A stretch of DNA of 63,954 bases, counting the filler, from Sanchytrium tribonematis (Eukaryota), in NCBI GenBank assembly GCA_018985235.1. It is 5 parts of 5 records of this genome, joined end to end, with 100 filler letters (N's around TTAATTAATTAA, not from the genome) between each part and the next. Parts side by side here need not be neighbours in the genome. Positions count along the whole stretch, not along the records: positions 52,592 to 63,954 come from JADGIG010000261.1; 4 more parts are not named here. One strand, given 5' to 3'. The number at the start of each line of letters is the position of its first letter. Within the stretch, counting starts at the first letter, position 1. The translations under genes and the position numbers were made by a program. This document shows positions 13,148 through 63,954 of the stretch, one piece after another. The notes beneath the pieces were generated by a model. That model worked only from the letters and a program-made list of their open reading frames with translations. It was not told the DNA's origin and did no database searches.

Positions 13148-13247
13148 NNNNNNNNNNNNNNNNNNNNNNNNNNNNNNNNNNNNNNNNNNNNTTAATTAAT
13201 TAANNNNNNNNNNNNNNNNNNNNNNNNNNNNNNNNNNNNNNNNNNNN
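13148..13247. other. Artificial contig linker (N44-TTAATTAATTAA-N44)
   Basis: Identical 100-nt all-frame-stop spacer occurs four times. Confidence 0.98.
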
Positions 13248-13735
13248 ATAGTGTCCCTCCAGGTTCCATCTTGAGAATACTTTTCCTCGATCGGGTTTCC
13301 TACCAAATTTAACTCTTCTAAACTTGGCAATTCCTTCAAAGGTGCCAACGCATCCCACGCCTTGATTCTGTTATTTGCACAGTAAAATACTCTCAATTTT
13401 TTGCACTGTTCAATCCCATTGCATTTCTCAATTTGATTGTAACTTAACCACAATTCCTCCAACGTTTCTGCAACACCATCCAATCCTTCAATTTTTTTAA
13501 TATTATTTCTTCCCAGTGAAAGAATTTTTAAATGAGATAGTCCATTTAAACTGGAAATTTTGTCAATCATGTTTGTTGAGAGACTCAGTTTTTCCACTTG
13601 CTGCAATTGCTGCAATGCACCATCCATTTTTTGTATAAATGGTTGACACATTAAAAGCTTGACTACTTTTGCCTCAGATGCTGGCTGTCCATTTTTCTCT
13701 TCCCACTTTTTAATTGCATCCTTCAAACTTGACAT
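13248..13735 (-). CDS. DNAL1: Axonemal outer-arm dynein light chain 1 (LC1), 3'-truncated
   Basis: [61 protein letters not shown]. Confidence 0.93.
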
Positions 13736-24058: not shown

Positions 24059-26341
24059 TTAAAATTTTAGTAAGTCGTCCAGCTCGTCCTCTACAGTTCT
24101 AGTTGGTGGGCTGGGTTTTTGTTTCGCAGGCTGGTTTTGTAAAGGTTGAGCCGGTTGAAATGAAAAAGGATCAGGCTGAACAACACTAGCGGACTTTGAT
24201 TGTGAAGTCGGGACTACCTGAGGCTGTGGCGGTGGGCTTTGTGCAAATGAAAAAGGGTCTTGTTGAACATTAGCTGGTTTTGCTTTGTAATTTGATTGTT
24301 GTGCAGAGGGTTCCTGTTGAGGAATAAATTGGGCAATAGGAGGTGGTTGGCCAAATTGTGTTGGTGAAGGTGGATTAGAATTATTTTGCGAGGAGATCGG
24401 TCGCGCACTAGAATTCGATTTTGCAGGTGGCTCATAAGACTCTTGTGATTGCAAAGGTAGATCGGGCGATTTTGTTTTTTTGAATGTTTTTCTCTCTGGA
24501 GATTTGTAGTCATCTTCAACTTCTTTGACACTCCCTGTACCAGTTGTATTCACCTCCATACTATCACTAACTGTATTACTACTTGGGCCCCTATTGGCTT
24601 TTAATTTGATCATGTTATCAATTTCAACTTGTTTAGACTCCGGAGTCTCTGAGGCACTTTCGTATGGTGGGATTTCTTGCACCTCATCCATTATCGAAAC
24701 CTTTTTTTGCATCGGGGATGTTATATCACCTAAAGGCGGTGCACTATTTGGATAAGCAGCCTTTGCTTCTTTTAAAAAATCTCGGGGATGTTGACCATTC
24801 TCATCTTGGTGTTGCCTTGCTAATTTCTCAGCAAAAAGTCTATGCATATGGTCTGGAAATTCGCTAGCATCCTCGACATCACAAATTCGTTCAGCCAATT
24901 TCTTTCTGTATATTAAAATTCCCTCGTTATCATTAATTTCTGATTCCTTGGTTCCATCCGTAACCAACCAGGATTTCCAGTCTTCGATCAAATTTGGTAA
25001 TAAATGAGGAACATATTGTCTTGCCATAAGACAGGCTTCAGCGTACAAATTGCTTGATTGCAAAATAATGCAACAAACCTCATACTCTTTCAAGAGAAAT
25101 GCTGCATTAAAAGCGACATTATATTTCTTTAAAGATTTGCACATTTTAATTAGATTTTGAAGACCACTCGTATTATTTTGACAGCTGTAAAATAAAAGCA
25201 AATGATCCACGTCATTACCGAGCAACAAGCAGCGTTCCGCAACTTCAAATTCCCAGTTTTGTAAAGCGATCTGACTCAGCAATTTGTATTTTTCCTCGCT
25301 TGGATCCAACTCACACATCTGTAAAGCAACATTCAGTCGTTTTAAATGAATAGCCAAGTCAAATTTGTGTTGGATATCTTGTGATATGTCCAAAGCTAGT
25401 TCATGCTTGTTCAAACCTTCCAAAAATCTTGCAAGTTTGTTTTTATAAGGCTCAGTTAGCTGGCTGGTATCTGCTTCATTGCTTACAACAAATTTTAATA
25501 AAATTTGTATATAATTTAAAGGCAAGTTGAAGCCATAAAATTGGTCTTTGTGCAGTAAATAAATGACATCGTTTTGGTAGCCTACAAGATAGCCCTGTTG
25601 TGTAGTGATGGCCATATTTATGTCTTTTATGACATAATTTAATTTGTTTTGTTTCGTAGTGTAAATGAGGCAATTTTCAACAAATAGAGCACTAGTTACG
25701 GCATCACTGTTTTGGTAAATTACGGAAAACGCTTGTTCAACCCCATCCTCGGGTAAACTTCCAGTGTTGACCGCATTAATGTATTGTTGTTGATGGTATT
25801 GTAATATAAATAGTTTGTCAGAAGTACAAATTGCGACTATAGTACCTGAAGGATTCCACTTAATTTGTTTCGCAACGCATTCTATTCGACGAACAATATA
25901 ACCAGAGCTGAAGTCATAAAACATCAAATGATACTTAGATTGAACACCTAATAAAGGGCCACTGAATAAACCTTCAACATTGTTCACAGCTGGATTCAAC
26001 CCGCACTTCAACTTGAATCCTTTATCTAATATTTGAACACCTAAATTAGTATAATCTACCTTCAGAATGTTTAACAGCGCATTCATTATCATATGACCAG
26101 GCAAACAAATCAGCAGGCCCGAATGCTTTATTTCTCCATGCCAAGGCAGTATAAATAATATACTGCCCATCTCCTACGACCACTGCAAACCTTCCGTTGG
26201 GTGAATGCTCAATAAAACTAGGATAAATTTCACATGTTCCCAATTCCTTCTTTTGCAAGAATAAAATATCACCATCCTTGCAATTTTCTGCGCTAAGCAT
26301 GTATTGATAAACATCAAAATGCTTATTTACAAGCAATTTAC
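24059..26341 (-). CDS. SEC27: Coatomer beta-prime subunit, 5'-truncated; intron 26041-26059
   Basis: KELGTCEIYP..HSPNGRFAVVVGDGQYIIYTALAWRNKAFG, HKFDLAI; Pro/Gln-rich tail. Confidence 0.93.
26041..26059 (-). other. 19-nt spliceosomal intron GTAGATTATACTAATTTAG
   Basis: Joins the two Sec27 frames (HSEG-VQILDKGF); CTAAT branch site. Confidence 0.9.
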
Positions 26342-26441
26342 NNNNNNNNNNNNNNNNNNNNNNNNNNNNNNNNNNNNNNNNNNNNTTAATTAATTAANNN
26401 NNNNNNNNNNNNNNNNNNNNNNNNNNNNNNNNNNNNNNNNN
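26342..26441. other. Artificial contig linker
   Basis: N44-TTAATTAATTAA-N44. Confidence 0.98.
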
Positions 26442-26510
26442 AACTTAACCCTGAAATAATTTGAATGTGAATAACAATTTTTCTTAAAACTTGGAGTACA
26501 AAATTGCAAA

Positions 26511-37829: not shown

Positions 37830-39437
37830 ATGATAAAGCGATCTCGTTCCTCCCTTGATTTGCCGAAAACTACTTCCTACCATTCATCTTGGATGCACAA
37901 AACTCCAGTTAATTACATTTTCAAGTATCATGGAAAAGTAGGTTTACTGTGCACAATATCTGAAGATGGTATCCTTAAGTTTTGGTCATTGCCAAAAATC
38001 GAATTTATCAAAAGCATCAAGCTTTGTGAGAACGTAATAGATGCTCATTTATTTCAAGATAATCTAATCGCCATCTGTAACAAAGAAAATAGAACTGATT
38101 TAATTTTAACAAGTATAGCGTCAGCCGATGTTTATTTTTCTAAAAATCTCTCCAAATTATATCATTTATGTTTAACAGACTCGAAGAAGATTTATTTAGT
38201 TTGCGGCAAATCTATAGACGTAATTTCATTCAGTGGCGATGTAATAGGTAATATTAAAGTACATGATCGCGCTATAACTACAATCAACTATAGCGCTACA
38301 CTAGATTTGTTGATATCTACGGATGAATCTGGTACAGTCAACATTTACTCCACAAATGAACCATTTCAGCCCAAAAATGTAGACTGGACAAGGAAATTTC
38401 AAACAGACTTGTATCTCTTGAATAAGCTAAATATTCATGCTATGAACTCCAATATTTCCAATGACGGCCTTTTGGTGTCTTTGTATTGCAACGATCAGGT
38501 TGTTCGTATTTTTGAAATCAAGAGTGGTAAACTCATTTTCGAGTTTGCAACATCGCTTGAGGATTTTAAAAGTACCTTGGAATACTCTCCCACAGAGTTT
38601 GCTAGACGCCAGGCTGTAGAGTTATCACTGGGTTCGAATCCTATAAAGTTGGGTCTCGAGTTTGACCAAACTGACAATTATATTTTGATTTCAACTTGGC
38701 AAGGAATTCTTGTAGTGAATATTAAATCAAAATCAATAGAAGCTGTTTTTGGTCAAGAGGATGCTTGTAGATTCAATAGATGTGTCGTTTATCAGCACAT
38801 AAAAGCAGATTTATCTACAATGGAGCTAGCAACTGCTGAAAATCCAACTTTTAAAGACATGATGACTATTGAACCTGTAATAATTGCAAGTGCCATCGGT
38901 AGCAGGCGCTTTTTTGTATTTAATAATGAGGAACCCTTGACAACCAGGGATTATCAAAATGAGATCATTGAAAAGGCCGAGGCTAATGTCAAAAACGATG
39001 AAGAAACAATGCAAATTGACGTAGAAAATCTGCCTAAACAAGCAGTACTTCATACAAGTAAAGGGGATTTTAAAGTTGAATTCTACCCTGAATATGCTCC
39101 TAAATGTGTTTATAATTTTACTCAATTAAGCAAAAATGGAAAGTACAGGAATTTGCTTTGGCATAGAGTGGTAAAGGGCTTCATGAATCAGACCGGAGAC
39201 CCGAAAGGCGATGGAACTGGAGGTGAGAGTATTTTCGGGCACCCTTTTTCAGACGAAATAGGCCTTCAGCACGACGCGTATGTGCTATCTTTTTCTAATC
39301 AAGGTCCCAACAAAATCACTAGCCAGTTTTTTGTTACTGTGAGGCAATGTCCTTGGTTGAATTTGAAATATTCTGTTTTTGGAAAGGTTATCGAAGGAAC
39401 TGATACCATACACGCCATCAATGATGTCGAGACGGAT
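37830..39437 (+). CDS. PPWD1: WD40-cyclophilin PPWD1, 3'-truncated
   Basis: SWMHK, DGILKFW, QTDLY, EFARRQAVE, HRVVKGFMNQTGDPKGDGTGGESIFG. Confidence 0.9.
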
Positions 39438-39537
39438 NNNNNNNNNNNNNNNNNNNNNNNNNNNNNNNNNNNNNNNNNNNNTTAATTAATTAANNNNNNN
39501 NNNNNNNNNNNNNNNNNNNNNNNNNNNNNNNNNNNNN
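39438..39537. other. Artificial contig linker
   Basis: N44-TTAATTAATTAA-N44. Confidence 0.98.
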
Positions 39538-40273
39538 ACAAAGACTATATGAGTATTTTTTATTGCAATTGAAGACAACTGAGGAAGTCACCAAGCTTGA
39601 TATTCAACATCTAGAAGAAAAACAACTAGGCATATCTGAAAAATTGAAATCGGAAGAGTTGAAATATCTTGAAGACAAAAAACACTATGATAATATATTA
39701 TATGGACTTGGAATAGAAATCGAGAGAGTTCAAAATGAAATGAAAATAGGAATTTCAAGAGAATCAAGCTTCAAGGAACAGGCGTTTAAGACACTTGGCA
39801 CAATCAGATCAGAATGGGAATTGTACGAGGCGGATGCGCTACAAGCAAAACATTTGAAGTCTCTCGAACTTGAGAAAAGTTATAATGAGTTTCTTAGATC
39901 TCTTCAAAACGAATTGGACGATTGGATAGATCGGAAGAAAAGAATACAATTTGAGCTGGCTGAGTGGGAAAATAGATTTAATCAGGAGTCGTCAGAAAAT
40001 TTAGATGTTATTTGTCGCCTTGAAGCTGAATTAGCATCAAAGACCAAAATGTTGGAAGAAACAAATCGAAAATTGAACGATATCACACTAGTTTACAACA
40101 AAATTTTGGAGGATAAAGAAAATATGTTGAAAACTCAATTTAACGAAAAGTTGCTTAATCTTTCACAACGAATTGCTGCAAAAAAGATCCAAAAACAGTG
40201 GAGAGTATATAAAATAAAAAATCCACCTTTAAAAAAAGACAAGCTGAATGTCAAAAAGAAAAAAAGTAAATAA
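39538..40273 (+). CDS. Coiled-coil IQ-motif protein, DRC10/IQCD-like, 5'-truncated
   Basis: Long coiled coil, C-terminal AAKKIQKQWRVYK IQ motif and poly-Lys tail. Confidence 0.55.
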
Positions 40274-47063: not shown

Positions 47064-47269
47064 ATATTTGAGAATAAAATTTATTATACTAGTTTTAAGC
47101 CAAATACAGAATAGTTTTTACCTCCACTTATATGGGCAATCTGTGAACCCTCATTGAAAAATGATGCGCTTTGACTAAAATTGACTCCAATTAAACAGAA
47201 TTTGATCAGGTTGAACAAGTAGGTCAATCAGCACATCGTTTGAAATTTATAAAATTGAAAACATAGGAG

Positions 47270-50200
47270 ATGATTGAGGAAGAAATTCTTCTTGAAGAAC
47301 AAAATTACGATACATATATAGAGATAGACATAGATACCCCATTAGAAATCGAGTTTACAAACGAGAAGCCCAAAGAAAAGCAAAAAATTTTAGCCAAGTT
47401 TAAAAAAGCTGAATTTGAGTATCTCGATCAATATGCTATAGCAGAAAAATCAACTGAATTTGTAAGACCAAGGCACTTGATAATGGGCTCTGTTGTAACT
47501 GAGTATACCTATGACATGGACATTTTGGACACAGAGTATTTGAATGCACTCCGCCAATTGAAAATGCATATTGACAAAAGAGATTTTCAAATTCTAATGA
47601 AAAAATTTGATCTTGAATGGCATTATTTAACAAAAGACTTGATAAGAGCGCATCAGCCAGATAATCCTTGTCAGATTTGCATGTCTAACGAGGTCCACCA
47701 CAATTCTAATGCAATCGTCTACTGCGATAGTTGCAATTTGACAGCGCACCAAGACTGCTATGGTATACCTTATATATGCGATGGGCCCTTTTTCTGTCGC
47801 AAGTGTATTTTAGACCCAAGAGGGAACCCAAAATGTGTTTTTTGTAATCAATCCGGAGGCCCAATGAAACGAACCAAACAGAATAATTGGGGACATGTTA
47901 TATGTGCATTTTTTTTACCCGAAGTTTATTTTGCAAACGATGTATATTTGGAACCTATTGACGGTGTAAAGAAAATTCAAAAGGATCGATGGAGGTTAAT
48001 CTGTACTATCTGTAAACAGAAAGGAGCTTGTATTCAATGTTATAAGAAGGGATGCTTTACAGCAATGCATGTATATTGTGCACAAAAAGAAGGGTACTGT
48101 CTTAGATTTCCTGGTCAGTGTGAACCAAGCGAGAACTTTTGCGGGTACTGCAGCAAACATACTCCTGAAAATTGGAAAGCAACTAATTTGAAGCTGAGTC
48201 TCAGCAATTCCTTAGACAATAACCCAATACCACAGGACTTGGCGAAAAACCCCGTTATGCCTGAGAAAGGCTTTGTAAATGCTACAAAGAATTTAAATAT
48301 ACCCGAAAAAGAGAAATACGCGCTCGTAAAGTACTGGTCTATGAAAAGATCTCACAAGGGAACAGCTCTTGTGAGGCAACTGGAGCACGAACCTCGCAAT
48401 ATCAGTCCTAAAGATCGGCAAAAGGTAGAAGATTTAAAAAGCGAATTAGAAACATTGAGAAAGTATTTGCATAGTATTAAACAAGAGTCACAAATTGAAC
48501 TCTCTTTGTTTCGAAACTACTTCAGAATATGGCAATTGATAATTAAACCGAAGCACCAAATGATCTCTCAGGCTGTTGAACGATTAAAAGGACTGGACCC
48601 TCAGCACATCTTTGCTACAAAAGTGAGTGATGATGTGCCACAATATTACGATATTATTAAAAATCCGATGGATTTTGAATCAATGGAGCTAAAACTTCAA
48701 TATTCAAAATACAAAACGTACGAAGATTTTGAGATAGATGTTCAACATATTTGGAAAAATGCCCAAATTTATAATTCCCCGGAAAGTATTTACTATGCTG
48801 CTGCTGAAGATTTGAGACTTGGGTCGCTAGAAATATTGCAGGAGGTCAAAAACAAGTGGCAACAGCTTCCAATTAATATGGAAACAGAATTACTTACCAA
48901 TTACAAGGATCTTGATAACAGTAAACTTGTGAAACTGTTGGAAATAGCTCGTAATATACTTGGTGGCAAATCAGATAAAGAAATTGTGTTAGATGATGAA
49001 ATATTTGCCGACGTTCCAAATAGACAATTCAATGTTACACCAGAAGGACTCCGACCTTTAGTATTGCGAAATAGTGTTAAAATTAGTCCACCAAAGAAAA
49101 GGAAAGCTGATGTGTTAGAAACCGTTGTTCGGTCTCCAAAGCCGAGAAAATCTAAATCTATGCAAGTCAGCATCATTTCTGAAAATTCAACTTCCAGGCG
49201 AAAAACGAGGTCGCGAGCAAATTCTCCTGAAAAAGAATTTTCTTCTATTAGAGTCACAAGGTCACGAAAAGCAAGCCTGGAAAGCCTTGAAGTTGCTACA
49301 AATGCAGTCGCGACTCCAGTTTCTAAAAGTAACTTGAGCAAAATTCAAAAGCAGATACTTCAAGACGTCTTCTCTAGCTCTCCAAGTCCTAAGAAAAAAA
49401 ATTATCAAATAGAGGAACAAGATGGCGATAATACTGGACAACAGTCTGATATCAGTGTACCTTCAGACTTTTCTATACTTTCAAATGCTGAAGACACTCA
49501 AAGGGTAAGAAAATCAAAAAGAATAAATTCTAAGAGCGTCGAATTAACCACTAGGCGAAGTACTAGAACCAAAACAAAGAAAGCAAATCAAACGAAAAAG
49601 AAGAAAAGTCTATCAAATATATCAGAAAGCATTAATCGAAAATTATCGGAACTTGATGAGATTATAAATAGCACTGAATCTAAAATCATAGACAATGTGT
49701 TGCGAAGAGCTAGTGCTGAAAAGAGGAAATCAAAAAAGCAAAAGAAAAATTCTTTAAAAATTGATACTGACTTTGATTTTAATGATGAAGTTCTTAGCAC
49801 CCCAAAACGAATGGACAGGGTAATTGTTACACGTCCGGGAACCCCAGAGGATGTACTTTTACCGCTAAAAAGATCACCAAAATATCCAGTAACAAATGAA
49901 GCCAATCGTTCGAAATCGAATGATTCTTCTAAAGACATCGGCAAAGTTGCAATAACATGGAAGCTGAATGATATATGTTGGGCCAAGGTTGTTGGCTTTC
50001 CATATTATCCCGCAAAAGTGCAAAAACCAAATTTAAATGAAATTAAATCAAAAAAGGGAGACCAAATTTATGTTCAATTCTACGATTCTAAAAACTACTA
50101 GTATTTCTTATTTATTAAGTGGTTGGGTCGACTCGTCCAGTATTAAGCCTCTGGGTGGCAAAAACATTGATAATTCTACATTCAAAGGCCAAAAGTACTC

Positions 50201-51036: not shown

Positions 51037-51216
51037 AACAAAGGAACTGTAACTTTTATTTTAAGGAACTTGATGTAATATAAATTTTACATTAGCATTA
51101 CTGAAAGCTAAAATCTTTACACTTTTTGAATACTGGGCATAAACGTTAGCTGCCAAGATTTTACGTTTTCGACGTTTTCTGGGTATAATCATATTTTGAA
51201 AATGTATTGAAACAAA

Positions 51217-52387
51217 ATGTATTTATTTTTACTTTCTGCTGTATTTTCTAAAGTGTTTATGGGTTATTATACCAATTGGTCGGGTCTACCGGTCTCTTCC
51301 ATACCTTGGTATTTAACTCATTTGTCTTACGCTTTTGCCCAAGTGGGACCTGATGGGACAGTGTCCAATTTTGACCCTGTGGATGTAGGCAATCCAAGTG
51401 GATGTAATGCGGGTGGATTGTACTATGAAATTTATAAGTTGAAACAGACTAGGCCGTGGTTGAAAAACATTTTGTCAATTGGAGGTTGGACATTTAGGGA
51501 CACGTTCTACCCTGTGATGAGTGATCCCGTCAAGCGAGCCAAATTTGTGAGTAGTTCAATTACTCTTGCAATGAATTATGGTTTTGACGGTAATTTATTT
51601 TAATTTAGGTCTAGATGTAGATTGGGAATATCCCAATAGTTTGCAAGAAGGATCATTTTACGTGACCATGATGAAAGATTTAAGGAAAGCGTTAGATTTT
51701 GCTGGTCTAAGGGATGGAAAACATTACATTTTGACATCTGCAATTCCTGCTAGTCAGTACCTCTTGAATAACTTCTTATTGGAACAATCACGAAAGTATG
51801 TTGACTGGTTTAATTTGATGGCTTACGATGCATCTGTAGGGACTAGTGCTGCGGTGAACCAAAGTCCTTTGTATAAAAATCCAAATGATCCTACGGGGTC
51901 AAGCTCGAGTGAAGTTATCAACTATATGCGAGCTAAAGGTGTGAACAGAAATCAAATCGTATTAGGCATACCGTTATATGCACACCAATACAATGTAGCA
52001 CCAAATGATCCTAAAAATGGACTGTTTAGTCCAAAAACTTCTAGTACAGATTCTTGGATTACCAACAAAGACATTGTAAGTTTATTGAATACTGGTAAAT
52101 ATAAGCAATTTTATGACGGTACTTCTCAAGTTCCATATCTCTATAATTCACAAGATGGCTTATTTGTGACATATGACAACGTACAATCGGTGACTGCCAA
52201 AGTGAAATATACAAATTACAAAAAATTAAGAGGCATTTTCTTTTGGGAGATTAATCAAGATTTTTTGACAGATCAATTAGAAGTCGCCGTATTGCCACAC
52301 GCACAGGAAACAATCTCGGGACTTACTTATTGGCCTGCTACAAAACTCTGCTCACCGACATCTATTTATTGTAATATAAAATGTTAA
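51217..52387 (+). CDS. Secreted GH18 chitinase; exons 51217-51589 and 51609-52387
   Basis: Signal peptide, THLSYAFA, SIGGWT; splicing gives FDGLDVDWEYP; NLMAYD, FFWE. Confidence 0.94.
51590..51608 (+). other. 19-nt spliceosomal intron GTAATTTATTTTAATTTAG
   Basis: Splits the GH18 catalytic DxxDxDxE motif; removal restores it exactly. Confidence 0.93.
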
Positions 52388-52398
52388 TAAAGTTTGTT

Positions 52399-52491
52399 TT
52401 AATATCTTGGTCTTTTATAATGATCTCTCTCTGAATTCCCTCTTCTTCTGTCATCATCAAAGCTTCTTCTATCTTGATACCCGCCATTGTT
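52399..52491 (-). CDS. 3' fragment of an Arg/Asp-rich protein ending ...DHYKRPRY
   Basis: Open frame from the contig edge: NNGGYQDRRSFDDDRRRGNSERDHYKRPRY*. Confidence 0.5.
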   Translation of the reverse strand, partial: NNGGYQDRRSFDDDRRRGNSERDHYKRPRY

Positions 52492-52591
52492 NNNNNNNNN
52501 NNNNNNNNNNNNNNNNNNNNNNNNNNNNNNNNNNNTTAATTAATTAANNNNNNNNNNNNNNNNNNNNNNNNNNNNNNNNNNNNNNNNNNNN
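52492..52591. other. Artificial contig linker
   Basis: N44-TTAATTAATTAA-N44. Confidence 0.98.
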
Positions 52592-53250
52592 ATGCTTGTT
52601 TCAACAAATTAGAAGGTTTAACGTATCCCCTACCAGATACTTTAATCCGTTTAAATTTGGATAACAATAAGATTAAATCACCACTGATTTTGCCACCCAA
52701 TTTAGAAAGCTTTACGGGGCAAGGAAATATGTTTTATGGCTCTTTAGATTTGCTTCCATTATCTCTGACTGATATTTTTATCGGATTTAATGATCTGTCT
52801 GGTGACATCTCAAATATCACATTTTATCATTTGCAGCAAAATGCTGTTTCCCAATTAAAAGAACTTCAAGTACATTACAATCAATTTAGTGGCCATTTAC
52901 CCCAATTACCACCGAATATGAATAAATTGGCGCTTCATGGTAACTTATTTGTGGGTTCTTTAGGTTTGATTCCAGATACATTGAGTGAATTATATATTTA
53001 TGGTTTGTAATTGCCAGGAGCCATTTATTTGAAACGACCAACAGTTTTGCACATAGAAGATACATTGGTGTATAATTTGACTTTAGCAGATACTTCTCAA
53101 ATTGCATCAGTAACAGATTGTAGCTTTTCAAGAACTCCTTTATTGAATAACTCATTTGTAGAAGTTTTATTTCCAATTTGTCAACATGACAATTTGTTTC
53201 TTAATGCTCCACTACAATTGATTTCCACTAAGAGCAACGGGATTTCGAGC

Positions 53251-53379
53251 CTATCTGAATCCACTATTGTAGAGTATTCAACAAGTGATCAAATGGAATC
53301 TACCTTATCTGAAGCCACAATTGTATCACATTCAACAAGTGATCAAATGGAATCTACCTTGTCTGAAGCCACCATTGTT
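53251..53379 (+). repeat. Coding 54-nt tandem repeat (~2.4 copies)
   Basis: LSESTIVEYSTSDQMEST / LSEATIVSHSTSDQMEST / LSEATIV, starting at 53251, 53305 and 53359. Confidence 0.9.
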
Positions 53380-53476
53380 ACTAGAAACTTCAAATTTACT
53401 ACTACGACTAGCTTTTTCAAGCTACAAAGCAGTGAAATTTTAAACATGACATTATCCACCATTTCAAATGTAACAA

Positions 53477-53495
53477 CCTCTGTTAAAATGTATAA
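53477..53495 (+). repeat. 5' target-site duplication CCTCTGTTAAAATGTATAA
   Basis: Identical 19-mer at 58441-58459. Confidence 0.95.
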
Positions 53496-56400
53496 CACGG
53501 AGATTTATCAAAAATGACGTCCTCCAGTAAAAGTGTTATGTTGAAACCCCAAGGCCCACTGCAGCCCGCAAACCCAGCAGAAATTGAAGACCCGAAAAAA
53601 TTACAATGGATATGCTGTCTAAAGGTTCAAATTAGACAGTTTAAAACAAATATTTACGAATTACCTGATTTGCAACTTGCTCGTCGCCAAATGATGAAGA
53701 TTTTGAAAATCAAGTCTCAAGATATTCGTAGAATGGCATTTATTCACAAAAATCGCTATTTAGAAGTCATTTGTACTGCTAAAGTTTTAGAGAGAGTTCT
53801 AGAATATGTCAGAGAATCCCTTGGAGGAACCCCTTTTTCCATGGGTAGCTGGCTAAAATTTATTAAATTGCCAATTAACAAGAGTCTTTACAAGGAAGAA
53901 TACGTCAGACTCAAATCTGATATTTACGAAGTCGCCCTTTCAATTCATTCTCCATCCCGTTTTGAAAATGATGTCACCAAGTTATTAGGTTATCTCTGTC
54001 ATCAATTGAATGCCAATTTCCATTATAACACGTACATTCGTACTGTTAAATCCAATATTGAAGAAGCAAAGAAGAAAAAGATTGATCTACCTACTTCAAC
54101 TCCAACATCTGCTCCGATTGCAATTGATGATGAATTGAATGCATTAATGGCCGACCTAAACAATTGCTCCACGTCATCTAGTGATGACAGCTTGTATGTG
54201 ACCATGGACGATGCCAATCAGAGCTGCAATGTGAAAAAACGAAAGATTGATGAGATGGATACCATTCTATGCTGTTTTACAGTAGATGGTACAATTGAAA
54301 CTAAGACGTTCCCCAAAGGTCTAGTCATTGGTCAAATTTGTGATTCTGTTGAGTTTGAGCATGTTGTGATGAATTTGCAAGCAATCTCAGATTGGCAAAC
54401 ACCAGTGATTGATGGAAGTTCAATTTTATGTACAAAGGAAAATTTGGCCCATAAAATTGAAATTGATGTTTTGGGAATCAAATCCAATCTATTTGTCCCT
54501 TTTGACACATTGGCATCCCATTTAGTACCACCAATGTATTGCAATGAAAAGTTTTGTGTATCAATCGATGGATTGGGATTGGATGATTCTGGAATGCTAT
54601 TGGATAACTTGAAGAGTATCTTTATTTCTTCAGTAAATGAGATTGCAACTTATTTACCTTCCCCAGGCAATGATAAATATGCCAGAAATGCCCATGAATT
54701 GAAGACAGATCGCGATTTTGATTTTCTTAAATTGCCCAAAATTGCAGTCATATTCTTTAAAAATGTCAATTGCATGATTTGGCTGTTTTTAATGTCTCAA
54801 ATAATGCCAATCATGGCATTCCATATTCATTTTGGAGGTAAAATAATCAATATTGATGCCCCTATTAATATTGCACAGGATATTGCTATTCAGATGTGTG
54901 CCCGTGGAATAGCAGCCGGGAAAGTTATATTTGAGGGTAAAACATTACCAATGGGACACCAAATTACTAGTGATCATAGTGGACGTGTCTACTACAAATT
55001 AAATGAAATGAGAGATTTGCGTGTGCAAGAAGTTATTTCAACAAAAAACACAAAATTGCGAGTTTTGGGGTGGAATGTATGCGGTTTAAAGTATAACACA
55101 CATGACATTCTAGCCATAATCCAGGCCTTTGACTTGGATGTTGTTTTTCTTTCAGAATGCAAAATATCCCAAAATACTCATTTGCCATCTAATTTTATTC
55201 TATTCAACAATTCCAATACATGTTATGGATGCGCAGTAGTATATAACAGCTTAAAATATAGCAGAGGGGATTTGAATATCAGTGGAAGTGAATATCACCT
55301 GCTCTTGAAATTAGAATCAATCGATTTATTATATGTCTATCGTCGCTTAAGCACGAATTGTATTGACTGGTACCATTCCATAAGACATATGATTAGTAAT
55401 AAGGTGTTTATGTTTGGGGACGTAAACGTGAATAAACTAAAAGCACTGAATACTCAGCAAATTTCCATGTTTGACTACATGGCAATGGATGGACTATATG
55501 AGTATGATTTGGGCGGCGATTATTCCTTTTTAAAAAATGGAAACATCAGTTACCCAGACTTGGCATTTTATAAAGGACAAACTAGTTATAAAGTCATTGA
55601 GGGATATTTGATGCAACGCTTTGATATTTCAGATCATTGCGGGATGATCTTTGAATTTGAATTAGAAGATGAGAATGTGGTCATTTATCCCAAGATGCCA
55701 CGCTGGAATGTTCATAAATTGAAGGATGAAGATACTGATTTTCGATTCAAACACGAGGAGGATTTGGAAATTATTCGTGAAGAAGGCGTATTGGAACAGC
55801 ATTTATTGGAATTTGAAAACGACAACTTGCCTGGCTCCCATAGATATGCAGCTTGCACTCATATTGGTGATGTTCTGATTCGTATCCTTCATTCATCCGC
55901 AAACAGAAGCATTGGCAAGTCTCGTCTCTTTCATGGAATTGATACGCAGATGCTGCAGGATAGTACCACTGCGCGACTTAGAGGCAATCATGCCATAGCC
56001 AATAGTATAATTGATCAGGCACGCAAGCTAGCTCAAAAGAAATTCAAATCTGACATTGATAAATTAGAATCTTGCCAATTTCTAAAAGTGATTAATTTGG
56101 TGTCCCGTCGCAAAGGAGTGAGCCGGCAACATTTGGATAGACTACGCCTTGAACAACACTTTGAGAAATGGGATGATAAATGGCATTTAAATTCGAATCA
56201 ACATGGTGCATTTATCCCAACGAATTTTAATAATTTTACGTGGATCGACTATAATATGGAGGATTTGGAAAAGATTATAAGTAAACTACCCAGTCACAAG
56301 GCCGCAGGTCCCACTGATGTACCAAATGAGCTGTTAAAGCACTCCAGTGCTCGATTTAAATCAATCTTATTAAAATATTTCAACTTGATTGGTAGAACTG

Positions 56401-58440
56401 GCATTGTGCCGGATATATTCAGATTCTCATCCATATTGCCAGTTCACAAAGGAAGATCAGACGATTATGAGTCCATGGTGGAATATCGTCCAATTGGACT
56501 ATGCTGTTGTTTACGCAAAATGTTTGAAAAAATGTTGAAACCCCTTTTGATGCCATTTCTGAAGACATCTGAAAACCAATTTGGATTTAAATGTGCCACC
56601 ACCTTATTAGATGCTGCTTGGTACTTTGAAAGTATTTTGGATGACTTAAACTACAACCCTCAAGATTATATACTCATTAAGGGCGATTTATCAGCAGCAT
56701 TCGATAGCTGTTCCCATGAGTCTCTTTTAAACATGTGCCAAAGTACGGGAATGCCTGACAATATCACTTCCCTAATTCAGAATCTTAACATGAGACAGAA
56801 TATTAAATTATCCCTTGGTGATCGCTCTACAAATTACAAAAGCATCAACCAGGGAATAATTCAGGGTACAATTATCAGCCCAAATCTTTTTACAAAACTA
56901 GTGGACTGGGCGATGACAAACATTGATGCCCATTGTGTATGGTTTGCAGACGATTTATTGATTCTAATGAAAAGAAGTGAAATGGATGCCAAGATGACTG
57001 AAATAATCGCAGCACTGGGCAACATCGGTTTGCATTTTAATATGAATAAGACACATGAGGTTACCGAGGTATTTGAAAAGTGGCTTGGTCTTCAGCTAAA
57101 CCACTTGGGTACTAATTCAGAACAGCAAATAAACGCCAATCTCAAAAAAGCAAGAAATCGAATACGAAATGCCAGGAACTGTGGCATTTTTAGCGGCGGC
57201 TATAAACAAGAGCATTTATTGCGCTATGTGGGCTCGGCAATCTTGCCATTACTGGAATTTGGTATTGGAATTCATGAGCCAATTTTAGAATTAGCATCAA
57301 AAGTAGATGTGTTTTTAAATACGGTAGTAAGGGATCTACTTGGCATCCCTAAACATACACCTGTTATTGACATTCGAACATTAAGCGGGTATACATCCTT
57401 CTTTGATAGATGGACAGCCGTAAAAGTAAAATTCACAAACAAAGTGAATGTACTAAATAACGATACAGATGATCTAGAGTACCAGCCAATGGCAAAAATG
57501 AGTTTTAGTTTGAATAAGAAGCTAAAATCATTCTTTAAAGAGAAAGATAAATCCCATATTTTGCAGGTTTGCAAAAGATCCTATCCAAATAGGGATACAC
57601 GATGCAGTCACTGTATGGGGGAACACAAATATGTAAATGGGATATTCAAATGTCATTCTAATTTGATATCCCAACCAACTGAAAAATGTGAGAAATTTGA
57701 GGGTGTGACGTATCTCTCCTTCCCAAACTCATGGCAATCTGTGATTCAACAACAACAAACGAAATTAAATAGTAACCAACTACTAGTGTATACGGACGCT
57801 AGTCTCCATTTAGATCCAGAGATACAAGCAACGGGTGCTGCAATTGCAATGTCACAATCTCATCTTCACGTAAAATCTTATGATCTATTAAATCTACAGC
57901 CTGACAACTCAACTCGTTGCGAATTAGCCACAGTGGTATGTATTTTGAAAGATATACAACAAATTAGTAGCTACAATACGCATGAAATCACTATTTACAC
58001 GGATTCAAAAAGCACCATTGACATTTTAGAAGCAGCTAAAGATAACACTATTCCACTTTATAAATTATATGGATGTGATCTCATTAAACATGTACTAAAT
58101 ACACTAGATAGAGTGTCATTGGTTTATACGCCAGGACATGATGATTCCAACCCCCACTCATTGAATCATCTATGTGACTATCTGAGCCATTCTCACGACA
58201 TTGCATCACCAGCACCAATTGAATTGACTGTTGATCCTGATTGGGTGAAATACGACAGGAAAATGAAGGCCGAAAGAGCAAAAGAAATTAATTTATTTAG
58301 ACTAAATCACTTAATGAGCACGGAAATGAATAAGAATGTACTATATGAAGTACTGAGAGAATTACACATCAATTGCATTCCAACAACCTAACGATTGTCA
58401 ATCTACCTGAGTTAATACTCAATAAATAACAAAAAAAAAA
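53496..58440 (+). mobile_element. Apparently full-length single-ORF non-LTR retrotransposon (LINE)
   Basis: Perfect 19-bp TSD, 18-nt 5' UTR, intact 1625-aa ORF, AATAAA at 58421, A10 tail at 58431-58440. Confidence 0.95.
53514..58391 (+). CDS. LINE polyprotein: N-terminal region, APE endonuclease (~55056-55660), RT (~56298-57120), Cys/His knuckle (~57600-57656), RNase H (~57780-58190)
   Basis: GWNVCGL, LSE, GDVN, SDH; KAAGPTD, YRPIGL, QFGF, DLSAAFD, GIIQG..SP, FADD; YTDAS, RCELA, YTDS, PGH..NHLCD. Confidence 0.95.
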   Translation: MTSSSKSVMLKPQGPLQPANPAEIEDPKKLQWICCLKVQIRQFKTNIYELPDLQLARRQMMKILKIKSQDIRRMAFIHKNRYLEVICTAKVLERVLEYVRESLGGTPFSMGSWLKFIKLPINKSLYKEEYVRLKSDIYEVALSIHSPSRFENDVTKLLGYLCHQLNANFHYNTYIRTVKSNIEEAKKKKIDLPTSTPTSAPIAIDDELNALMADLNNCSTSSSDDSLYVTMDDANQSCNVKKRKIDEMDTILCCFTVDGTIETKTFPKGLVIGQICDSVEFEHVVMNLQAISDWQTPVIDGSSILCTKENLAHKIEIDVLGIKSNLFVPFDTLASHLVPPMYCNEKFCVSIDGLGLDDSGMLLDNLKSIFISSVNEIATYLPSPGNDKYARNAHELKTDRDFDFLKLPKIAVIFFKNVNCMIWLFLMSQIMPIMAFHIHFGGKIINIDAPINIAQDIAIQMCARGIAAGKVIFEGKTLPMGHQITSDHSGRVYYKLNEMRDLRVQEVISTKNTKLRVLGWNVCGLKYNTHDILAIIQAFDLDVVFLSECKISQNTHLPSNFILFNNSNTCYGCAVVYNSLKYSRGDLNISGSEYHLLLKLESIDLLYVYRRLSTNCIDWYHSIRHMISNKVFMFGDVNVNKLKALNTQQISMFDYMAMDGLYEYDLGGDYSFLKNGNISYPDLAFYKGQTSYKVIEGYLMQRFDISDHCGMIFEFELEDENVVIYPKMPRWNVHKLKDEDTDFRFKHEEDLEIIREEGVLEQHLLEFENDNLPGSHRYAACTHIGDVLIRILHSSANRSIGKSRLFHGIDTQMLQDSTTARLRGNHAIANSIIDQARKLAQKKFKSDIDKLESCQFLKVINLVSRRKGVSRQHLDRLRLEQHFEKWDDKWHLNSNQHGAFIPTNFNNFTWIDYNMEDLEKIISKLPSHKAAGPTDVPNELLKHSSARFKSILLKYFNLIGRTGIVPDIFRFSSILPVHKGRSDDYESMVEYRPIGLCCCLRKMFEKMLKPLLMPFLKTSENQFGFKCATTLLDAAWYFESILDDLNYNPQDYILIKGDLSAAFDSCSHESLLNMCQSTGMPDNITSLIQNLNMRQNIKLSLGDRSTNYKSINQGIIQGTIISPNLFTKLVDWAMTNIDAHCVWFADDLLILMKRSEMDAKMTEIIAALGNIGLHFNMNKTHEVTEVFEKWLGLQLNHLGTNSEQQINANLKKARNRIRNARNCGIFSGGYKQEHLLRYVGSAILPLLEFGIGIHEPILELASKVDVFLNTVVRDLLGIPKHTPVIDIRTLSGYTSFFDRWTAVKVKFTNKVNVLNNDTDDLEYQPMAKMSFSLNKKLKSFFKEKDKSHILQVCKRSYPNRDTRCSHCMGEHKYVNGIFKCHSNLISQPTEKCEKFEGVTYLSFPNSWQSVIQQQQTKLNSNQLLVYTDASLHLDPEIQATGAAIAMSQSHLHVKSYDLLNLQPDNSTRCELATVVCILKDIQQISSYNTHEITIYTDSKSTIDILEAAKDNTIPLYKLYGCDLIKHVLNTLDRVSLVYTPGHDDSNPHSLNHLCDYLSHSHDIASPAPIELTVDPDWVKYDRKMKAERAKEINLFRLNHLMSTEMNKNVLYEVLRELHINCIPTT

Positions 58441-58459
58441 CCTCTGTTAAAATGTATAA
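58441..58459 (+). repeat. 3' target-site duplication
   Basis: Directly follows the poly(A) tail; matches 53477-53495. Confidence 0.95.
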
Positions 58460-58860
58460 ATATCAAGCAACTCCATTTCAATTGGTACTGACTGTGAAAA
58501 TGATACTCCGATTGGCCATTTCAGTCATTTTTATAATATCATTGATTGCTAAAATGCCTTGGAAGAGAATCAAATCCAAGAGGGCCACTTTATTCTCTTT
58601 TGCATCCAAAAATCCAACATCAAAATCAAAACTTCCAAGTTATGCGTGAAATAAATAAATACCCCTCTAAACCATTCTTTTTGGCACTTGGCAATATTAA
58701 TTATAGCTTCATCATCCAACAAAATCTCAAAAATACCATCCAATGAGCTTCTATTTATGTTATTGGTTAAAATTAGCCACTTCAAGAATATTCTAATTCT
58801 TTACCAATAAATGACCTCCGAATCTATGTAAAAAGCAACAGCGACCCCGGTTATATCCAC

Positions 58861-60215
58861 ATGTTGTTATTCTGTCTCGGTTACGCTCTCACAGATTGTC
58901 AAAATCTAAAACAATTTGCAATCAATTTAAACATGAATATAGCAAATCCAACAACCATGAATCAAATTACAAATAATTTCTGCACGGGTATTGTTGATGG
59001 TGTTGTATGCAATAATGGAGTCATTGAATCTATAAGTTGGGTCAATTATGGATTAAGTGGAAGTTTCAAAGCATATTTACCGTCTCAGTTAATCAGTTTA
59101 AATTTGGAAAGCAATCAAATTACTGGATCACTACCCACTGCAGGATATCCGAGTACGCTCAAATCATTTTCAGTGCTAGATAATAAATTAAGTGGAATTG
59201 TTCCAAAATTCCCAGATGGTTTAGATAGTTTAACAGTAGATACCAATCAATTCACTAGTTTCGGAGTACTTCCAGCCAATTTGACGTATTTCAATGCCAA
59301 TGTCAATTTGATTAAACGCACATTTCCGAATAATTTGCCAAAAAATCTAGTTTATTTGAGACTACAAAGCAATCAAATTAGTGGCACCCTTTCTAATCTT
59401 CCTTCTTCTCTCATTGAAATTGATATTTGCGGTAATAATATAGGTGGTACCATTCCCAAATTACCACCGAATCTCGTAAATTTCAATGCATGCATCAACC
59501 AATTCAAAAATATCATCTATCCACTCCCAAATACATTACAGCGCACCAATATGTACTACAATATGATCCAAGCACCGGTAATTTTACCTCCAAACATCCA
59601 AGCAATTTGTTTTATGGCAAATTAGATCCATTTCCAATTTCATTAATTGAATTTAATGTGGGTGGTAATTTTTTGAGTGGAGATGTGTCAAATATCACTT
59701 TTTATCAAGTGCAACCTGATGCTGTGTCTGCTTTGACTTCTATTCAATTGCATGAAAATCAATTCACGGGGTATTTGCCATTATTTCCACCTAATTTGGA
59801 CACATTAGCACTTCATGGTAACCGATTTAGTGGCTCATGGGTGTCTATTCCAGAGTCAGTGACTGTTTTATTCTTGTATGGATTGCCATTAACTGGATCC
59901 ATTTATTTGAAACATCCTCTAAATGTGTTGATACAAGATACGCTTATTCACAATTTGACAATTGAAGATACATCACAAATGGCAGATTGTCGGTTTTCAA
60001 ATACCCCAATGCTGAATAATTTAAATGTTCAAAAATTATATCCAATTTGTGAACACTTGAATTTATTTAATTATACAGCACCAATTTATGGTACCATAGA
60101 GCCATATAAAACAGTTTTTAAACCTGAAATAGCAATTGATTCTGATACAGCAATGGGTTTTTCAGAATTAACAAGAGAAACGAGCCAATTTGTAACTACC
60201 AGTTATCATGGATGA
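58861..60215 (+). pseudogene. LRR surface-protein gene copy 2: frameshift near 59600, TM tail missing
   Basis: Signal peptide plus DC cap and LP..L..L LRRs; five codons plus 1 nt missing after PPNIQ relative to paralogs; stalk runs into copy 3. Confidence 0.75.
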
Positions 60216-61917
60216 AATTAACAACAATTGCTGTATTGCACCAGTAACAGGGGTTGCTTGTTCTGGGGGAATCATTAGTTCAATAAGTTGGACAGATATT
60301 TACTTTAATGGGACTTTTCCGACTTCACAACCCATATTTCCCCCTCAATTGACATATTTCAATGTGGAATTCAATGCATTAACTGGAGAACTACCAAAAA
60401 CAGGATATCCAAGTACATTAAAGTTCTTTTCAGTCACTCACAACAATCATATGAATGGAACCATTCCTCGATTCCCAGACGGACTAGAGACATTAGCTGC
60501 TGGAGACAATAGTTTTTCTAATTTCGCAACACTGCCTACAAATCTAACGTATTTAGATATAAGTCAAAACTTTGTTTTATATAAAGAATTTCCAAGTCAT
60601 TGGCCTCCCAATTTACTAGCTTTAGGTGTTCAAAACAACAACATGAATGGCACTGTCACCAATTTACCTGATGGCTTGCTTATGTTGACACTCCGTGGAA
60701 ATAAAATCACTGGTACCATTCCAAAACTACCCAGCAAGTTAGTCGATTTCACAATTTGCTCAAACCAAATCACAAATATTACTTATCCACTCCCCGACAC
60801 AATCACAAATATCAACATGTACTCCAATATAATCAAAGCACCACTTATTTTACCACCTTTGATTCAATCTTATTACGCAAATTCGAATTTATTGTACGGA
60901 CCAATTCCAAGTGTTTTACCCCCTACTTTAGGTGCATTTGTCGTGGGAATCAATCAATTGACTGGAGATATATCCAATTTGACATATTATCATGTGCAGC
61001 CCAATTTTAATTCTCCTTTAACCGATCTCGAAATGCAACACAATTTTTTGACTGGTCATATGCCTAAATTACCAGCCCTTTTGAAAGTACTCAAATTACA
61101 TTATAACCAATTAAGTGGCCCTGCTGTTCCTATTCCAGATACTGTCACCTGGTTACAAATTGGCAATCAGCCTCTAACTGGAACCATCCACATGAAACAA
61201 CCAGTCATGCTTGAAATTGACAATACTTTAATTCATGATGTGATTGTAGATGATGCATCTCAATTGACTATTAATTATTGTAAAGTATCAGGGACTCCAA
61301 CTTTAAATAATACAAATGTGGAATCATTTTTTCAAATTTGTGAAAGAACAGATTTATTTTTATATATTCCACCAGTCTACAACACCACAGATATTGGGTA
61401 TACATCAACAATAGATTCATCAACTATTGATTCATCGATGGCTACTAGTGATGCTATTATGTTCACTAAAAGTGCCACTTTACAGAATTCGCAATCATTT
61501 GCCATTTCTGCAACTATTTCAGAAGAAAATCAAGAAGTATTGGCATCCATCATCACCAGAAGAATCAAATTTGCAATCAGCACAGCATTATTGTCTATCA
61601 ATACCACCCAATATGCATCTACCTTGCAAATATCCACAACAACCACAAAATTGTCTCAAACAACAATGGCACATTTCCAATATCAACCTGAACCACTCCA
61701 ATTTAATATCAGTATATCCTCAATCATCAGAATAGCCATATCCATTATGATACTCGTGAATATATTCCGTGATACGCCATGGAAACACTCAAAAACTGTT
61801 AAAATGAATCGATTTTCAACTACAAAATCAGTAAAAACATGGGGTATTTCCACAAATTCATCTGTTAAACAATCCATGATGACATCCATGGGCACATCTG
61901 TCAAAACAGGCTTTTAA
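60199..61917 (+). CDS. LRR receptor-like protein copy 3 (LRRs, Ser/Thr stalk, TM, basic tail); lacks signal peptide, possibly pseudogenised
   Basis: PVIMDEINNNCC aligns to internal PTTMNQITNNFC of copy 2; TM IIRIAISIMILVNIF..PWK. Confidence 0.75.
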   Translation, partial: PVIMDEINNNCCIAPVTGVACSGGIISSISWTDIYFNGTFPTSQPIFPPQLTYFNVEFNALTGELPKTGYPSTLKFFSVTHNNHMNGTIPRFPDGLETLAAGDNSFSNFATLPTNLTYLDISQNFVLYKEFPSHWPPNLLALGVQNNNMNGTVTNLPDGLLMLTLRGNKITGTIPKLPSKLVDFTICSNQITNITYPLPDTITNINMYSNIIKAPLILPPLIQSYYANSNLLYGPIPSVLPPTLGAFVVGINQLTGDISNLTYYHVQPNFNSPLTDLEMQHNFLTGHMPKLPALLKVLKLHYNQLSGPAVPIPDTVTWLQIGNQPLTGTIHMKQPVMLEIDNTLIHDVIVDDASQLTINYCKVSGTPTLNNTNVESFFQICERTDLFLYIPPVYNTTDIGYTSTIDSSTIDSSMATSDAIMFTKSATLQNSQSFAISATISEENQEVLASIITRRIKFAISTALLSINTTQYASTLQISTTTTKLSQTTMAHFQYQPEPLQFNISISSIIRIAISIMILVNIFRDTPWKHSKTVKMNRFSTTKSVKTWGISTNSSVKQSMMTSMGTSVKTGF

Positions 61918-61951
61918 TAAATTCATAAATCATCTTAACCCCTTGTCAAAC

Positions 61952-63007
61952 ATGGATGCTCAAAAATTGCCATTTGAATTATTAATCAAATGTATCCCAC
62001 ACCATCAACTATTTTTACTCAATAAACCATTAACCAATGTTTATTTCCAATATTATTATACTGAATATACTATTTCTCACAAATATCCATATTTGCCAAC
62101 ATCCAATATTTTCAATTTAAATGCCATGATTCACCATTTAATCATTCAGAAACCAATTGATATTGATTTTAATCAATTAACCAGTCTCAAATCTGTTAAA
62201 ATTAAGATAGTAGATGGTTTACTCATGAATTTAATACGCAATGAACCTGATGTGTTTAAACAATTGGCATATTCCCATATTGTAATGAATATCACCTCAT
62301 TATCACTTTATAGACCATCTAATGAGTCGTATATGGACCATATTATCCAATTTAAACAATTAAAATCACTTTTAATGCCTAAGTTGCATCCAAACATGTC
62401 CAATTTAAATGAATTATCCCAATTAACTCATCTCACCATCATGGATATCAAAGATACATTCGACTACAATACAGTACATCCATTTATACAGATTACTCAT
62501 TTAACCATTTTTAGAGCCACACAACATTTCATCAATCAATGTCTCAAATTATTCCCAAATGTCTCTCATCTCCAATTTAAATTATCTAAAAATGGATTAA
62601 ATGCATCCAATCTTACTCAAATCACTCATTTCACAACAGAACAACCCATGTCACAATTCCCTCCCAATCTCAAATATTTAAAATGTATTGGTGCCACCAT
62701 TCATGTGGATTTGCCACATTCTATTCAATCTTATGGCCATGTCTTTTATTGTGGATGGCATCAACAAAATGAAATGAATTTTATTTATAAAATGATGGAA
62801 TACATGTCATTTTATTCAAATATTTTAATTTATTTGATTTGTGATGGATATTTCATGATTTCAAATCAATTAGTGCCGAATGATGTGTGGCATGATGTAA
62901 AATATAGGCATATAGAGATATTAAATGGATATTATCATTATTATAAAGATGGGGCACATGATTTATTTCATAAATATACACAAGAAATGTATTTGAATGA
63001 AAAATAA
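61952..63007 (+). CDS. F-box-like/LRR (FNIP-like) protein
   Basis: LPFELLIKC at N-terminus, repeated LTHLTI/ITHL and LPHSI/PPNLKYL motifs. Confidence 0.55.
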   Translation: MDAQKLPFELLIKCIPHHQLFLLNKPLTNVYFQYYYTEYTISHKYPYLPTSNIFNLNAMIHHLIIQKPIDIDFNQLTSLKSVKIKIVDGLLMNLIRNEPDVFKQLAYSHIVMNITSLSLYRPSNESYMDHIIQFKQLKSLLMPKLHPNMSNLNELSQLTHLTIMDIKDTFDYNTVHPFIQITHLTIFRATQHFINQCLKLFPNVSHLQFKLSKNGLNASNLTQITHFTTEQPMSQFPPNLKYLKCIGATIHVDLPHSIQSYGHVFYCGWHQQNEMNFIYKMMEYMSFYSNILIYLICDGYFMISNQLVPNDVWHDVKYRHIEILNGYYHYYKDGAHDLFHKYTQEMYLNEK

Positions 63008-63037
63008 ATAGATTTATTGAATTTGAGAATGCCGTTG

Positions 63038-63724
63038 CTAAATCATATCTTGATAAAGCAATTCTAAATTTGCTTGAGTGATGGCTTGTAAATTAATTTT
63101 AAATTTGGCCTGAATTGCACGAATGTTGGAATTTGACCACTTAAAATTTAGAAATGCCTCTTGTTGTATTTGAATTAGCCAATAAATTCTTTGTAAATTA
63201 TTTTCTTGAATGGCTGTAGATAATTTTAAATCAAATAATCCCATTAAATCTTCTTCTTTTTTTAAAATGAAACCTGGTTGCATCAACACCTCATATAAAT
63301 GAGCAAAATTATGTGTTTTTAATGATGTTGTCACTGCTTCCTGTAAAGTATTTGGATATTTCACAAATCGTTCAAAATATTTCATTACAATTTCTTTTAC
63401 GCCAAAAGTCATTTTCCAATTGTAATTATTAAACAAACATACATGAATCCAATTGTATCCTCTATATGATTTGACTACATTATAAATGTAGATTTTATTC
63501 ATTTCGAGCATTTTAATACAATTATCACTTGTAAATTGTCGTCTGTAAACATCATAAACTGGTTGGAGCACATTATCTGTTACAAATAGACTCGACTCTT
63601 CATACATTGGAACCTTGGATAGTAACTCTATAGCTTTATCTTTATATTGACTACCATTTTCACCAATCAAGTATGTAAAGAAGTGAGCAAATTGATTTTT
63701 ACATGTGTAAACATTGTGCGTCAT
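63038..63724 (-). CDS. Hypothetical protein
   Basis: ATG 63724 preceded by CCCCT motif; no recognised domain. Confidence 0.55.
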   Translation of the reverse strand: MTHNVYTCKNQFAHFFTYLIGENGSQYKDKAIELLSKVPMYEESSLFVTDNVLQPVYDVYRRQFTSDNCIKMLEMNKIYIYNVVKSYRGYNWIHVCLFNNYNWKMTFGVKEIVMKYFERFVKYPNTLQEAVTTSLKTHNFAHLYEVLMQPGFILKKEEDLMGLFDLKLSTAIQENNLQRIYWLIQIQQEAFLNFKWSNSNIRAIQAKFKINLQAITQANLELLYQDMI

Positions 63725-63954
63725 ATGACACGAGGGGATTTCGATTTGGAAGATCCGCCTCGATTGCGTCAATTTTCGCGCATAATAAACAGTTCATTTT
63801 CACATTTGAACAGAGAAACGAATAGTCATTTTACTATTCATTGCAAACCCAATAATACTTTCGCGTATTATGACATGAGAAAACATAAAAGATTTATTTT
63901 GGCAAATGTGCCACCAGATATATGTGCAAAGTCATTGCGTAGGTTCCTTCGGGG

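Follow-up and report, generated by a model that had tools for sequence, protein, structure and literature searches.

A long interspersed nuclear element (LINE) of 4.9 kb was identified in the genome of Sanchytrium tribonematis (assembly GCA_018985235.1), likely an early-branching fungus of the sanchytrids; in this element one open reading frame (ORF) joins an N-terminal extension of about 514 aa to APE endonuclease, reverse transcriptase (RT) and RNase H domains. The stretch of DNA analysed, referred to as the window, is 63,954 nucleotides long and consists of five joined parts, the last of which (positions 52,592 to 63,954, JADGIG010000261.1) contains the element. The element is intact, with defined ends, an uninterrupted frame, complete catalytic motifs and an extension conserved in a second family, and the segment directly preceding the endonuclease is predicted to be a ubiquitin-like (UBL) domain. 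The layout is apparently new: an ORF1-like region is fused in frame, at least one predicted UBL precedes APE, and the RNase H, of the His type, follows a Cys/His motif.

Structure of the element

The ATG at 53514 opens a frame of 1625 aa (protein P0002) that is closed by the TAA at 58391 (58389-58391) and has no internal stops, whereas the other two frames over 53514-55100 contain 34 and 55 stops. P0002 is an APE-type retrotransposon protein of the non-LTR (non-long-terminal-repeat) class, or LINE, as APE lies upstream of a non-LTR RT and the element has a target-site duplication (TSD) and an A-tail. No long terminal repeat was found among the 20 largest direct-repeat families listed. The features of the element, including its 5' and 3' untranslated regions (UTRs), are as follows.

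53475..53495, + strand: 5' copy of the TSD, 21 bp (exact 21-nt repeat, two copies in the window)
53496..53513, + strand: 5' UTR, 18 nt; from the sequence, the 5' end of the element lies at 53492-53496
53514..58391, + strand: single ORF, 1625 aa (P0002); open frame, and also one ORF in the related P0004
55053..55667, + strand: APE endonuclease, aa 514-718 (Pfam Exo_endo_phos, E 0.0019, below the curated cut-off)
56478..57095, + strand: RT core, aa 989-1194 (Pfam RVT_1, E 2.3e-24)
57603..57656, + strand: Cys/His motif C-x2-C-x3-H-x8-C-H, aa 1364-1381 (identical spacing in P0004)
57774..58187, + strand: RNase H with D-E-D-H-D, aa 1421-1558 (Pfam RNase_H, E 1.3e-5, at the cut-off)
58392..58438, + strand: 3' UTR, 47 nt (AATAAA at 58421-58426, A-tail at 58431-58438)
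58439..58459, + strand: 3' copy of the TSD (exact 21-nt repeat)

Every catalytic motif of APE, RT and RNase H that was looked for is present. The Exo_endo_phos match covers aa 520-578, at the start of APE, and the APE motifs N, E, DxN, D and SDH are all found in both the P0002 and P0004 families, as are the five RNase H motifs. The RT carries WFADD at aa 1143, and its best PDB sequence matches are R2 and L1 ORF2p. The Cys/His motif is a non-canonical knuckle located upstream of RNase H; it is the sole Cys/His motif found, and no CCHC was found downstream of RNase H. The semi-conserved position of RNase H is His (PGH) rather than Arg in both families. A His-type RNase H thus lies downstream of a Cys/His motif at 57603-58187; because the same order has been described with an Arg-type RNase H, the P0002 lineage may have captured its RNase H independently.

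The 3' end consists of AATAAA followed by A8-10. TAAC occurs before both the A-tail (58427-58440) and the 5' TSD copy (53471-53476) and may represent microhomology where priming took place. With a 5' UTR of just 18 nt, any internal promoter would lie within the coding sequence.

The insertion interrupts a host gene, since successive portions of a nearby leucine-rich repeat (LRR) paralog (60196-61917) are matched by its two flanks, residues 329-472 by one (E 3e-19) and 494-541 by the other (E 4e-4).

52593..58649, + strand: interrupted host LRR/transmembrane gene (flanks match the paralog at 60196-61917)

Contigs of run X1 were also compared with the element; this run is possibly where the window itself came from, and it does not count as independent support. 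In one contig position 53474 is joined to 58439, with 21 letters compatible with either side; this contig, which joins both flanks, is probably of paralogous or allelic origin. A single 2407-nt contig spans 53492-55898 at a depth above that of the flanks. An assembly artefact was rejected on this ground, the nearest N spacer ending at 52592, and a mis-join is therefore unlikely. Contig depth, which is not copy number, was 132 over the 5' half and 203-239 over the 3' half as compared with 27-90 in flank contigs, and the depth of the 2407-nt contig suggests several copies with the same 5' end. As this multi-copy contig begins at 53492, the start of the 18-nt 5' UTR appears to be the true 5' end common to these copies. 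Among the run X1 differences listed, 8 of 11 in the ORF are synonymous. A diverged copy of 53904-54223 has a 91-nt deletion and, since a frameshift and a stop are also present in it, is dead. The sample seems to contain at least three LINE families of the P0002 type.

The N-terminal extension and its candidate ubiquitin-like segments

A preliminary description, made from the sequence alone, had proposed an undescribed single-ORF LINE in which a basic domain, a linker with a KKRK motif and three candidate tandem ubiquitin-like segments precede APE. The order of these parts was borne out: the GWNVCG motif of APE begins at aa 519 of the same frame, the region of aa 30-190 has a net charge of +14 (+14/+11), KKRK, the three segments and the hydrophobic stretch lie where they had been placed, and P0004 likewise combines a single LINE ORF with a long extension, which is conserved. 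The features of the extension are as follows.

53601..54083, + strand: basic N-terminal domain, aa 30-190 (60% identity to P0004 over aa 30-125, 51% over aa 126-190)
54084..54251, + strand: acidic linker (36% identity to P0004)
54234-54245, + strand: KKRK resembling a nuclear localisation signal, aa 241-244 (also in P0004; putative function)
54258..54440, + strand: segment 1, aa 249-309, candidate beta-grasp (31% identity, low-confidence model)
54447..54638, + strand: segment 2, aa 312-375, candidate beta-grasp (47% identity; predicted local distance difference test score, pLDDT, 24-34)
54741..54812, + strand: hydrophobic stretch, aa 410-433, predicted helix (helix aa 409-430, pLDDT 39-47)
54813..55004, + strand: segment 3, aa 434-497, predicted ubiquitin-type beta-grasp without a terminal GG (predicted model)

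P0004 matches the extension over 99% of its length with 45% identity (E 3.5e-128), which argues that the extension is more than a chance feature. A chance spacer read-through was rejected, the frame and domains being kept in P0004. The basic domain has no match in Pfam or PDB and is likely an ORF1p-like RNA-binding part; a pattern resembling an RNA recognition motif (RRM) was noted by eye only, and no CCHC knuckle was seen by eye in aa 1-514. ORF1 types I-IV of Khazina and Weichenrieder reportedly comprise RRM with CCHC, coiled coil-RRM-CTD, PHD and esterase forms. Residues 410-428 give the maximum 19-residue Kyte-Doolittle mean of the protein (1.76), and the hydrophobic stretch is retained in P0002, P0004 and P0005, with only 16% identity over aa 415-433.

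Pfam and PDB sequence searches with the extension and with each segment gave nothing usable, and a single-sequence AlphaFold model of aa 1-514 had a pLDDT of 33, so that Foldseek matches from that model are meaningless. Segment 3 very probably folds as a beta-grasp, according to its predicted model. Its structural matches are led by ubiquitin-family chains, and it superimposes on Dsk2, Rad23, parkin, BAG1 and SF3A1 with a root-mean-square deviation of 2.1-2.9 A over 65-69 residues, at identities to integral UBL domains of at most about 22% and with no Pfam match. The viral fold matches include pestivirus polyproteins that contain ubiquitin inserts.

The part of the tandem proposal that concerned segments 1 and 2 did not gain such support (pLDDT 24-62), and no structural match covered either of them. 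Segment 1 stands a little above an even chance of being a beta-grasp: its model has the strand-strand-helix-strand-strand order at pLDDT 52-62 and then 34-36, and is weakened where alignment A6 misaligned the first 8-9 residues to scattered P0004 residues. For segment 2 the same fold is somewhat doubtful. In comparisons with ThiS/MoaD and TGS profiles (30 sequences each, 500 shuffles per comparison), no score was significant: for segment 1, 33 and 134 of 500 shuffles were equal or higher (ThiS), and for segment 2, 500 and 254 of 500. In profile-profile comparison segment 3 scored above 47 of 47 pol windows with ThiS/MoaD and TGS alike, and segments 1 and 2 matched over just 5-11 columns. Both kinds of profile test are weak even on segment 3. 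The three segments have no mutual similarity and are therefore not recent tandem repeats. ESM Atlas held no feature match for aa 245-505 or for P0006; the P0006 model (pLDDT 0.41) gave one ThiS-family match among 10 (TM 0.35/0.43), which was not counted. One of the three modules is accordingly supported, entirely by structure prediction.

As the preliminary description had noted, no segment ends in GG: the only Gly-Gly pairs within aa 1-520 are those at aa 104 and aa 441, and none follows the last strand of segment 3 in any of the four sequences of the lineage. Polyprotein processing, which had also been suggested, is therefore unlikely to occur at a canonical deubiquitinase site. A cleavable ubiquitin fusion was rejected for the same lack, and a conjugatable ubiquitin-like modifier was likewise set aside, no C-terminal Gly-Gly having been found. 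The 2A motif was not found, and 2A skipping was rejected; no conserved Met marks a domain start in aa 190-520.

Relatives and placement

A word search of 5.8 billion proteins retrieved P0002 itself and P0004 only, and a HMMER search with aa 1-514 against 1.84 billion representatives (E <= 0.001) retrieved P0004, P0005 and P0006. P0004 (1621 aa) and P0005 (122 aa) are Sanchytrium tribonematis proteins according to the naming of their source. P0004 is one ORF with the P0002 layout and 59% overall identity, amounting to 70% in APE, 69% in RT, 56% in segment 3, 54% in RNase H and 26% in aa 376-414. Since P0004 peptides can be read from three loose ends of run X1, P0004 is probably a second family of the same genome or sample rather than the ortholog of another species. 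P0006 (108 aa, from one 1004-nt ENA contig, E 3e-4) is made up of segment 3 and, after it, an APE-start motif, and is the sole independent lineage; it begins at segment 3, and this start may be real or the edge of a gene call. The lineage rests on four sequences.

Pattern scans of metagenomes and viruses with the N-terminal region gave no relative. Of 95 loci in an RT scan, 80 were retained, and their identities ranged from 22-34%; none of the 80 carried the extension at E < 0.05, and only 23 hold an ORF of at least 700 aa. An RT tree was built from 36 of 82 rows, after exclusion of short or near-identical ones; in it P0002 and P0004 share a stem of 3.58 changes per column among 34 unlabelled RTs. 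PDB matches leave R2 and L1 unseparated for the RT, and the separate ORF1 and ORF2 that characterise L1 were not found, both families having one frame. In five metagenome LINEs (L027, L028, L030, L032 and L033) a 1100-aa frame opens with a PHD-like Cys pattern before APE, as judged by eye; this pattern occupies the position of the UBL in P0002.

Proposed role of the predicted ubiquitin-like domain

Target-primed reverse transcription with APE, RT, TSD and A-tail is established LINE biology, and this route is proposed here because all four are present. Translation from the first ATG would yield one protein, whose basic domain would take the place of ORF1p and bind the element RNA in cis, and KKRK would bring the particle into the nucleus. 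Segment 3 most likely remains attached to the enzyme, because there is no GG, no nearby 2A motif and no conserved start codon. Its surface might then recruit a host ubiquitin-binding factor of chromatin, repair or turnover, and so fill the part proposed for the PHD finger with which ORF2 of some CR1/L2 elements begins. That segment 3 is such a docking surface is given about an even chance; this reading is favoured because the adjacency to APE is conserved and because the position which we take to correspond to Ile44 (ubiquitin numbering) is a mostly hydrophobic residue.

It is also possible, if unlikely, that the beta-grasp acts within the element's own particle, packing on APE or binding RNA or target DNA without a host partner, by analogy with RNA binding by TGS domains and the SF3A1 UBL; however, aa 434-500 are not basic (net charge +2 and -2), and the structural matches are headed by the ubiquitin family. 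Quite unlikely is a processing or dosage device, whereby a host protease or the proteasome would split off the ORF1-like part or degrade the enzymatic part and restore the ORF1 excess that two-ORF LINEs obtain via translation. An unprocessed fused ORF would give a 1:1 ratio, the pestivirus inserts among the fold matches belong to polyproteins in whose processing they have a role, the hydrophobic stretch ends by eye in small residues resembling a protease site in three sequences, the variable linker suggests a former ORF1/ORF2 boundary, and P0006 starts directly at segment 3. Against this stand the lack of GG past the last strand, of 2A and of a conserved domain-start Met, and the start of P0006 may be a mere gene-calling boundary.

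That the segments derive from a captured host fragment or from read-through of a spacer, and serve just as a folding or solubility linker without a specific role, appears very improbable. Segment 1 is just 31% identical, similar to the linker preceding it, and the degenerate run X1 copy lacks part of the region; but that copy is dead, and segment 3 is conserved to the same degree as RNase H (56% vs 54%) and is found again ahead of APE in a distant protein. A bolder and improbable proposal is that of a deep, long-branch lineage with ORF1 and ORF2 fused, in which three tandem beta-grasps at the junction would mimic a ubiquitin chain and route the polyprotein to the ubiquitin-proteasome machinery, freeing the RNA-binding part and limiting the enzyme, and in which a His-type RNase H was captured independently. 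Such chain mimicry would be a new way of setting the ORF1:ORF2 ratio.

A domain of ubiquitin fold linked to the endonuclease would add to the known LINE accessory domains and offer a handle on the link between transposition and the ubiquitin system, long suggested in work including PMC2836005. The fused frame raises the question of how a LINE functions with ORF1 and ORF2 made one to one, and the compact, intact element with defined ends is amenable to direct deletion tests in a reporter assay.

Neighbouring sequences

A tandem cluster of LRR genes, one of them split by the LINE, occupies 52593-61917; these genes encode a Ser/Thr-rich stalk and, C-terminally, a hydrophobic segment, and many further paralog-like LRR contigs occur in run X1. 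N-run spacers with a TTAATTAATTAA core recur about every 13.1 kb (13147-13250, 26339-26442, 39436-39538 and 52491-52593); the window therefore looks like concatenated contigs, and genes on opposite sides of a spacer are not genuine neighbours. The window also contains a chitinase gene of family GH18 that runs over two frames, probably with one intron (51211-52387), and a gene for a PHD-bromo-PWWP chromatin protein (47267-50101).

Comparison with known systems

In the literature cited here, the accessory domains described for LINEs are RRM, CCHC, PHD, esterase, helicase and RNase H. The word ubiquitin does not occur in the accessible text of an accessory-domain review (PMC6338049), and the main text of the sanchytrid genome paper (PMC8371127) contains neither "transpos" nor "ubiquitin". 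No published non-LTR element with a ubiquitin-like domain was found in a search that lay outside Repbase, Dfam and subscription papers.

The closest parallels are CR1 subgroups 4 and 6 and L2 subgroups 4 and 5, in which a PHD is encoded at the start of ORF2, or of the element's only ORF, and, ahead of APE, has been proposed to aid genome targeting (Metcalfe and Casane 2014, PMC4120745; its main text has no occurrence of "ubiquitin"). Like P0002, these elements carry a small accessory domain directly before APE, at times in a single ORF; P0002 differs in its predicted beta-grasp in place of PHD, in the ORF1-sized region fused in frame and in RNase H. Protease domains of the Ulp1 and OTU kinds are known from the DNA transposons Ginger, Mutator and Helitron (Bao et al. 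2010, PMC2836005; Arkhipova and Yushenova 2019, PMC6431247). Those transposons resemble the P0002 element in bearing a part of the ubiquitin system, but in P0002 it is a ubiquitin-fold domain in a LINE, not a protease in a DNA transposon.

Plant Ta11 L1 and oomycete L1 elements are described as having a C-terminal archaeal-type (Arg) RNase H, and other RNase H-bearing non-LTR elements as having CCHC downstream of it (Ustyantsev et al. 2017, PMC5348765). P0002 shares with the Ta11 and oomycete elements the order APE-RT-Cys/His motif-RNase H, and differs from them in the His-type RNase H, the single ORF, the UBL and the non-canonical knuckle spacing. From the I-group LINEs with RNase H (I, Tad, R1 and Ingi) it differs in having Cys/His before, not after, RNase H. 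Elements of the Ingi/L1Tc type have a single ORF with APE, RT and RNase H. P0002 is distinguished from these by the lack of a 2A motif, by the 514-aa extension and by the Cys/His motif before RNase H. Finally, segment 3 resembles the UBLs of Dsk2, Rad23, parkin, BAG1 and SF3A1 in lying inside a larger protein with no free GG, and differs from those integral UBLs in that it sits in a retrotransposon enzyme.
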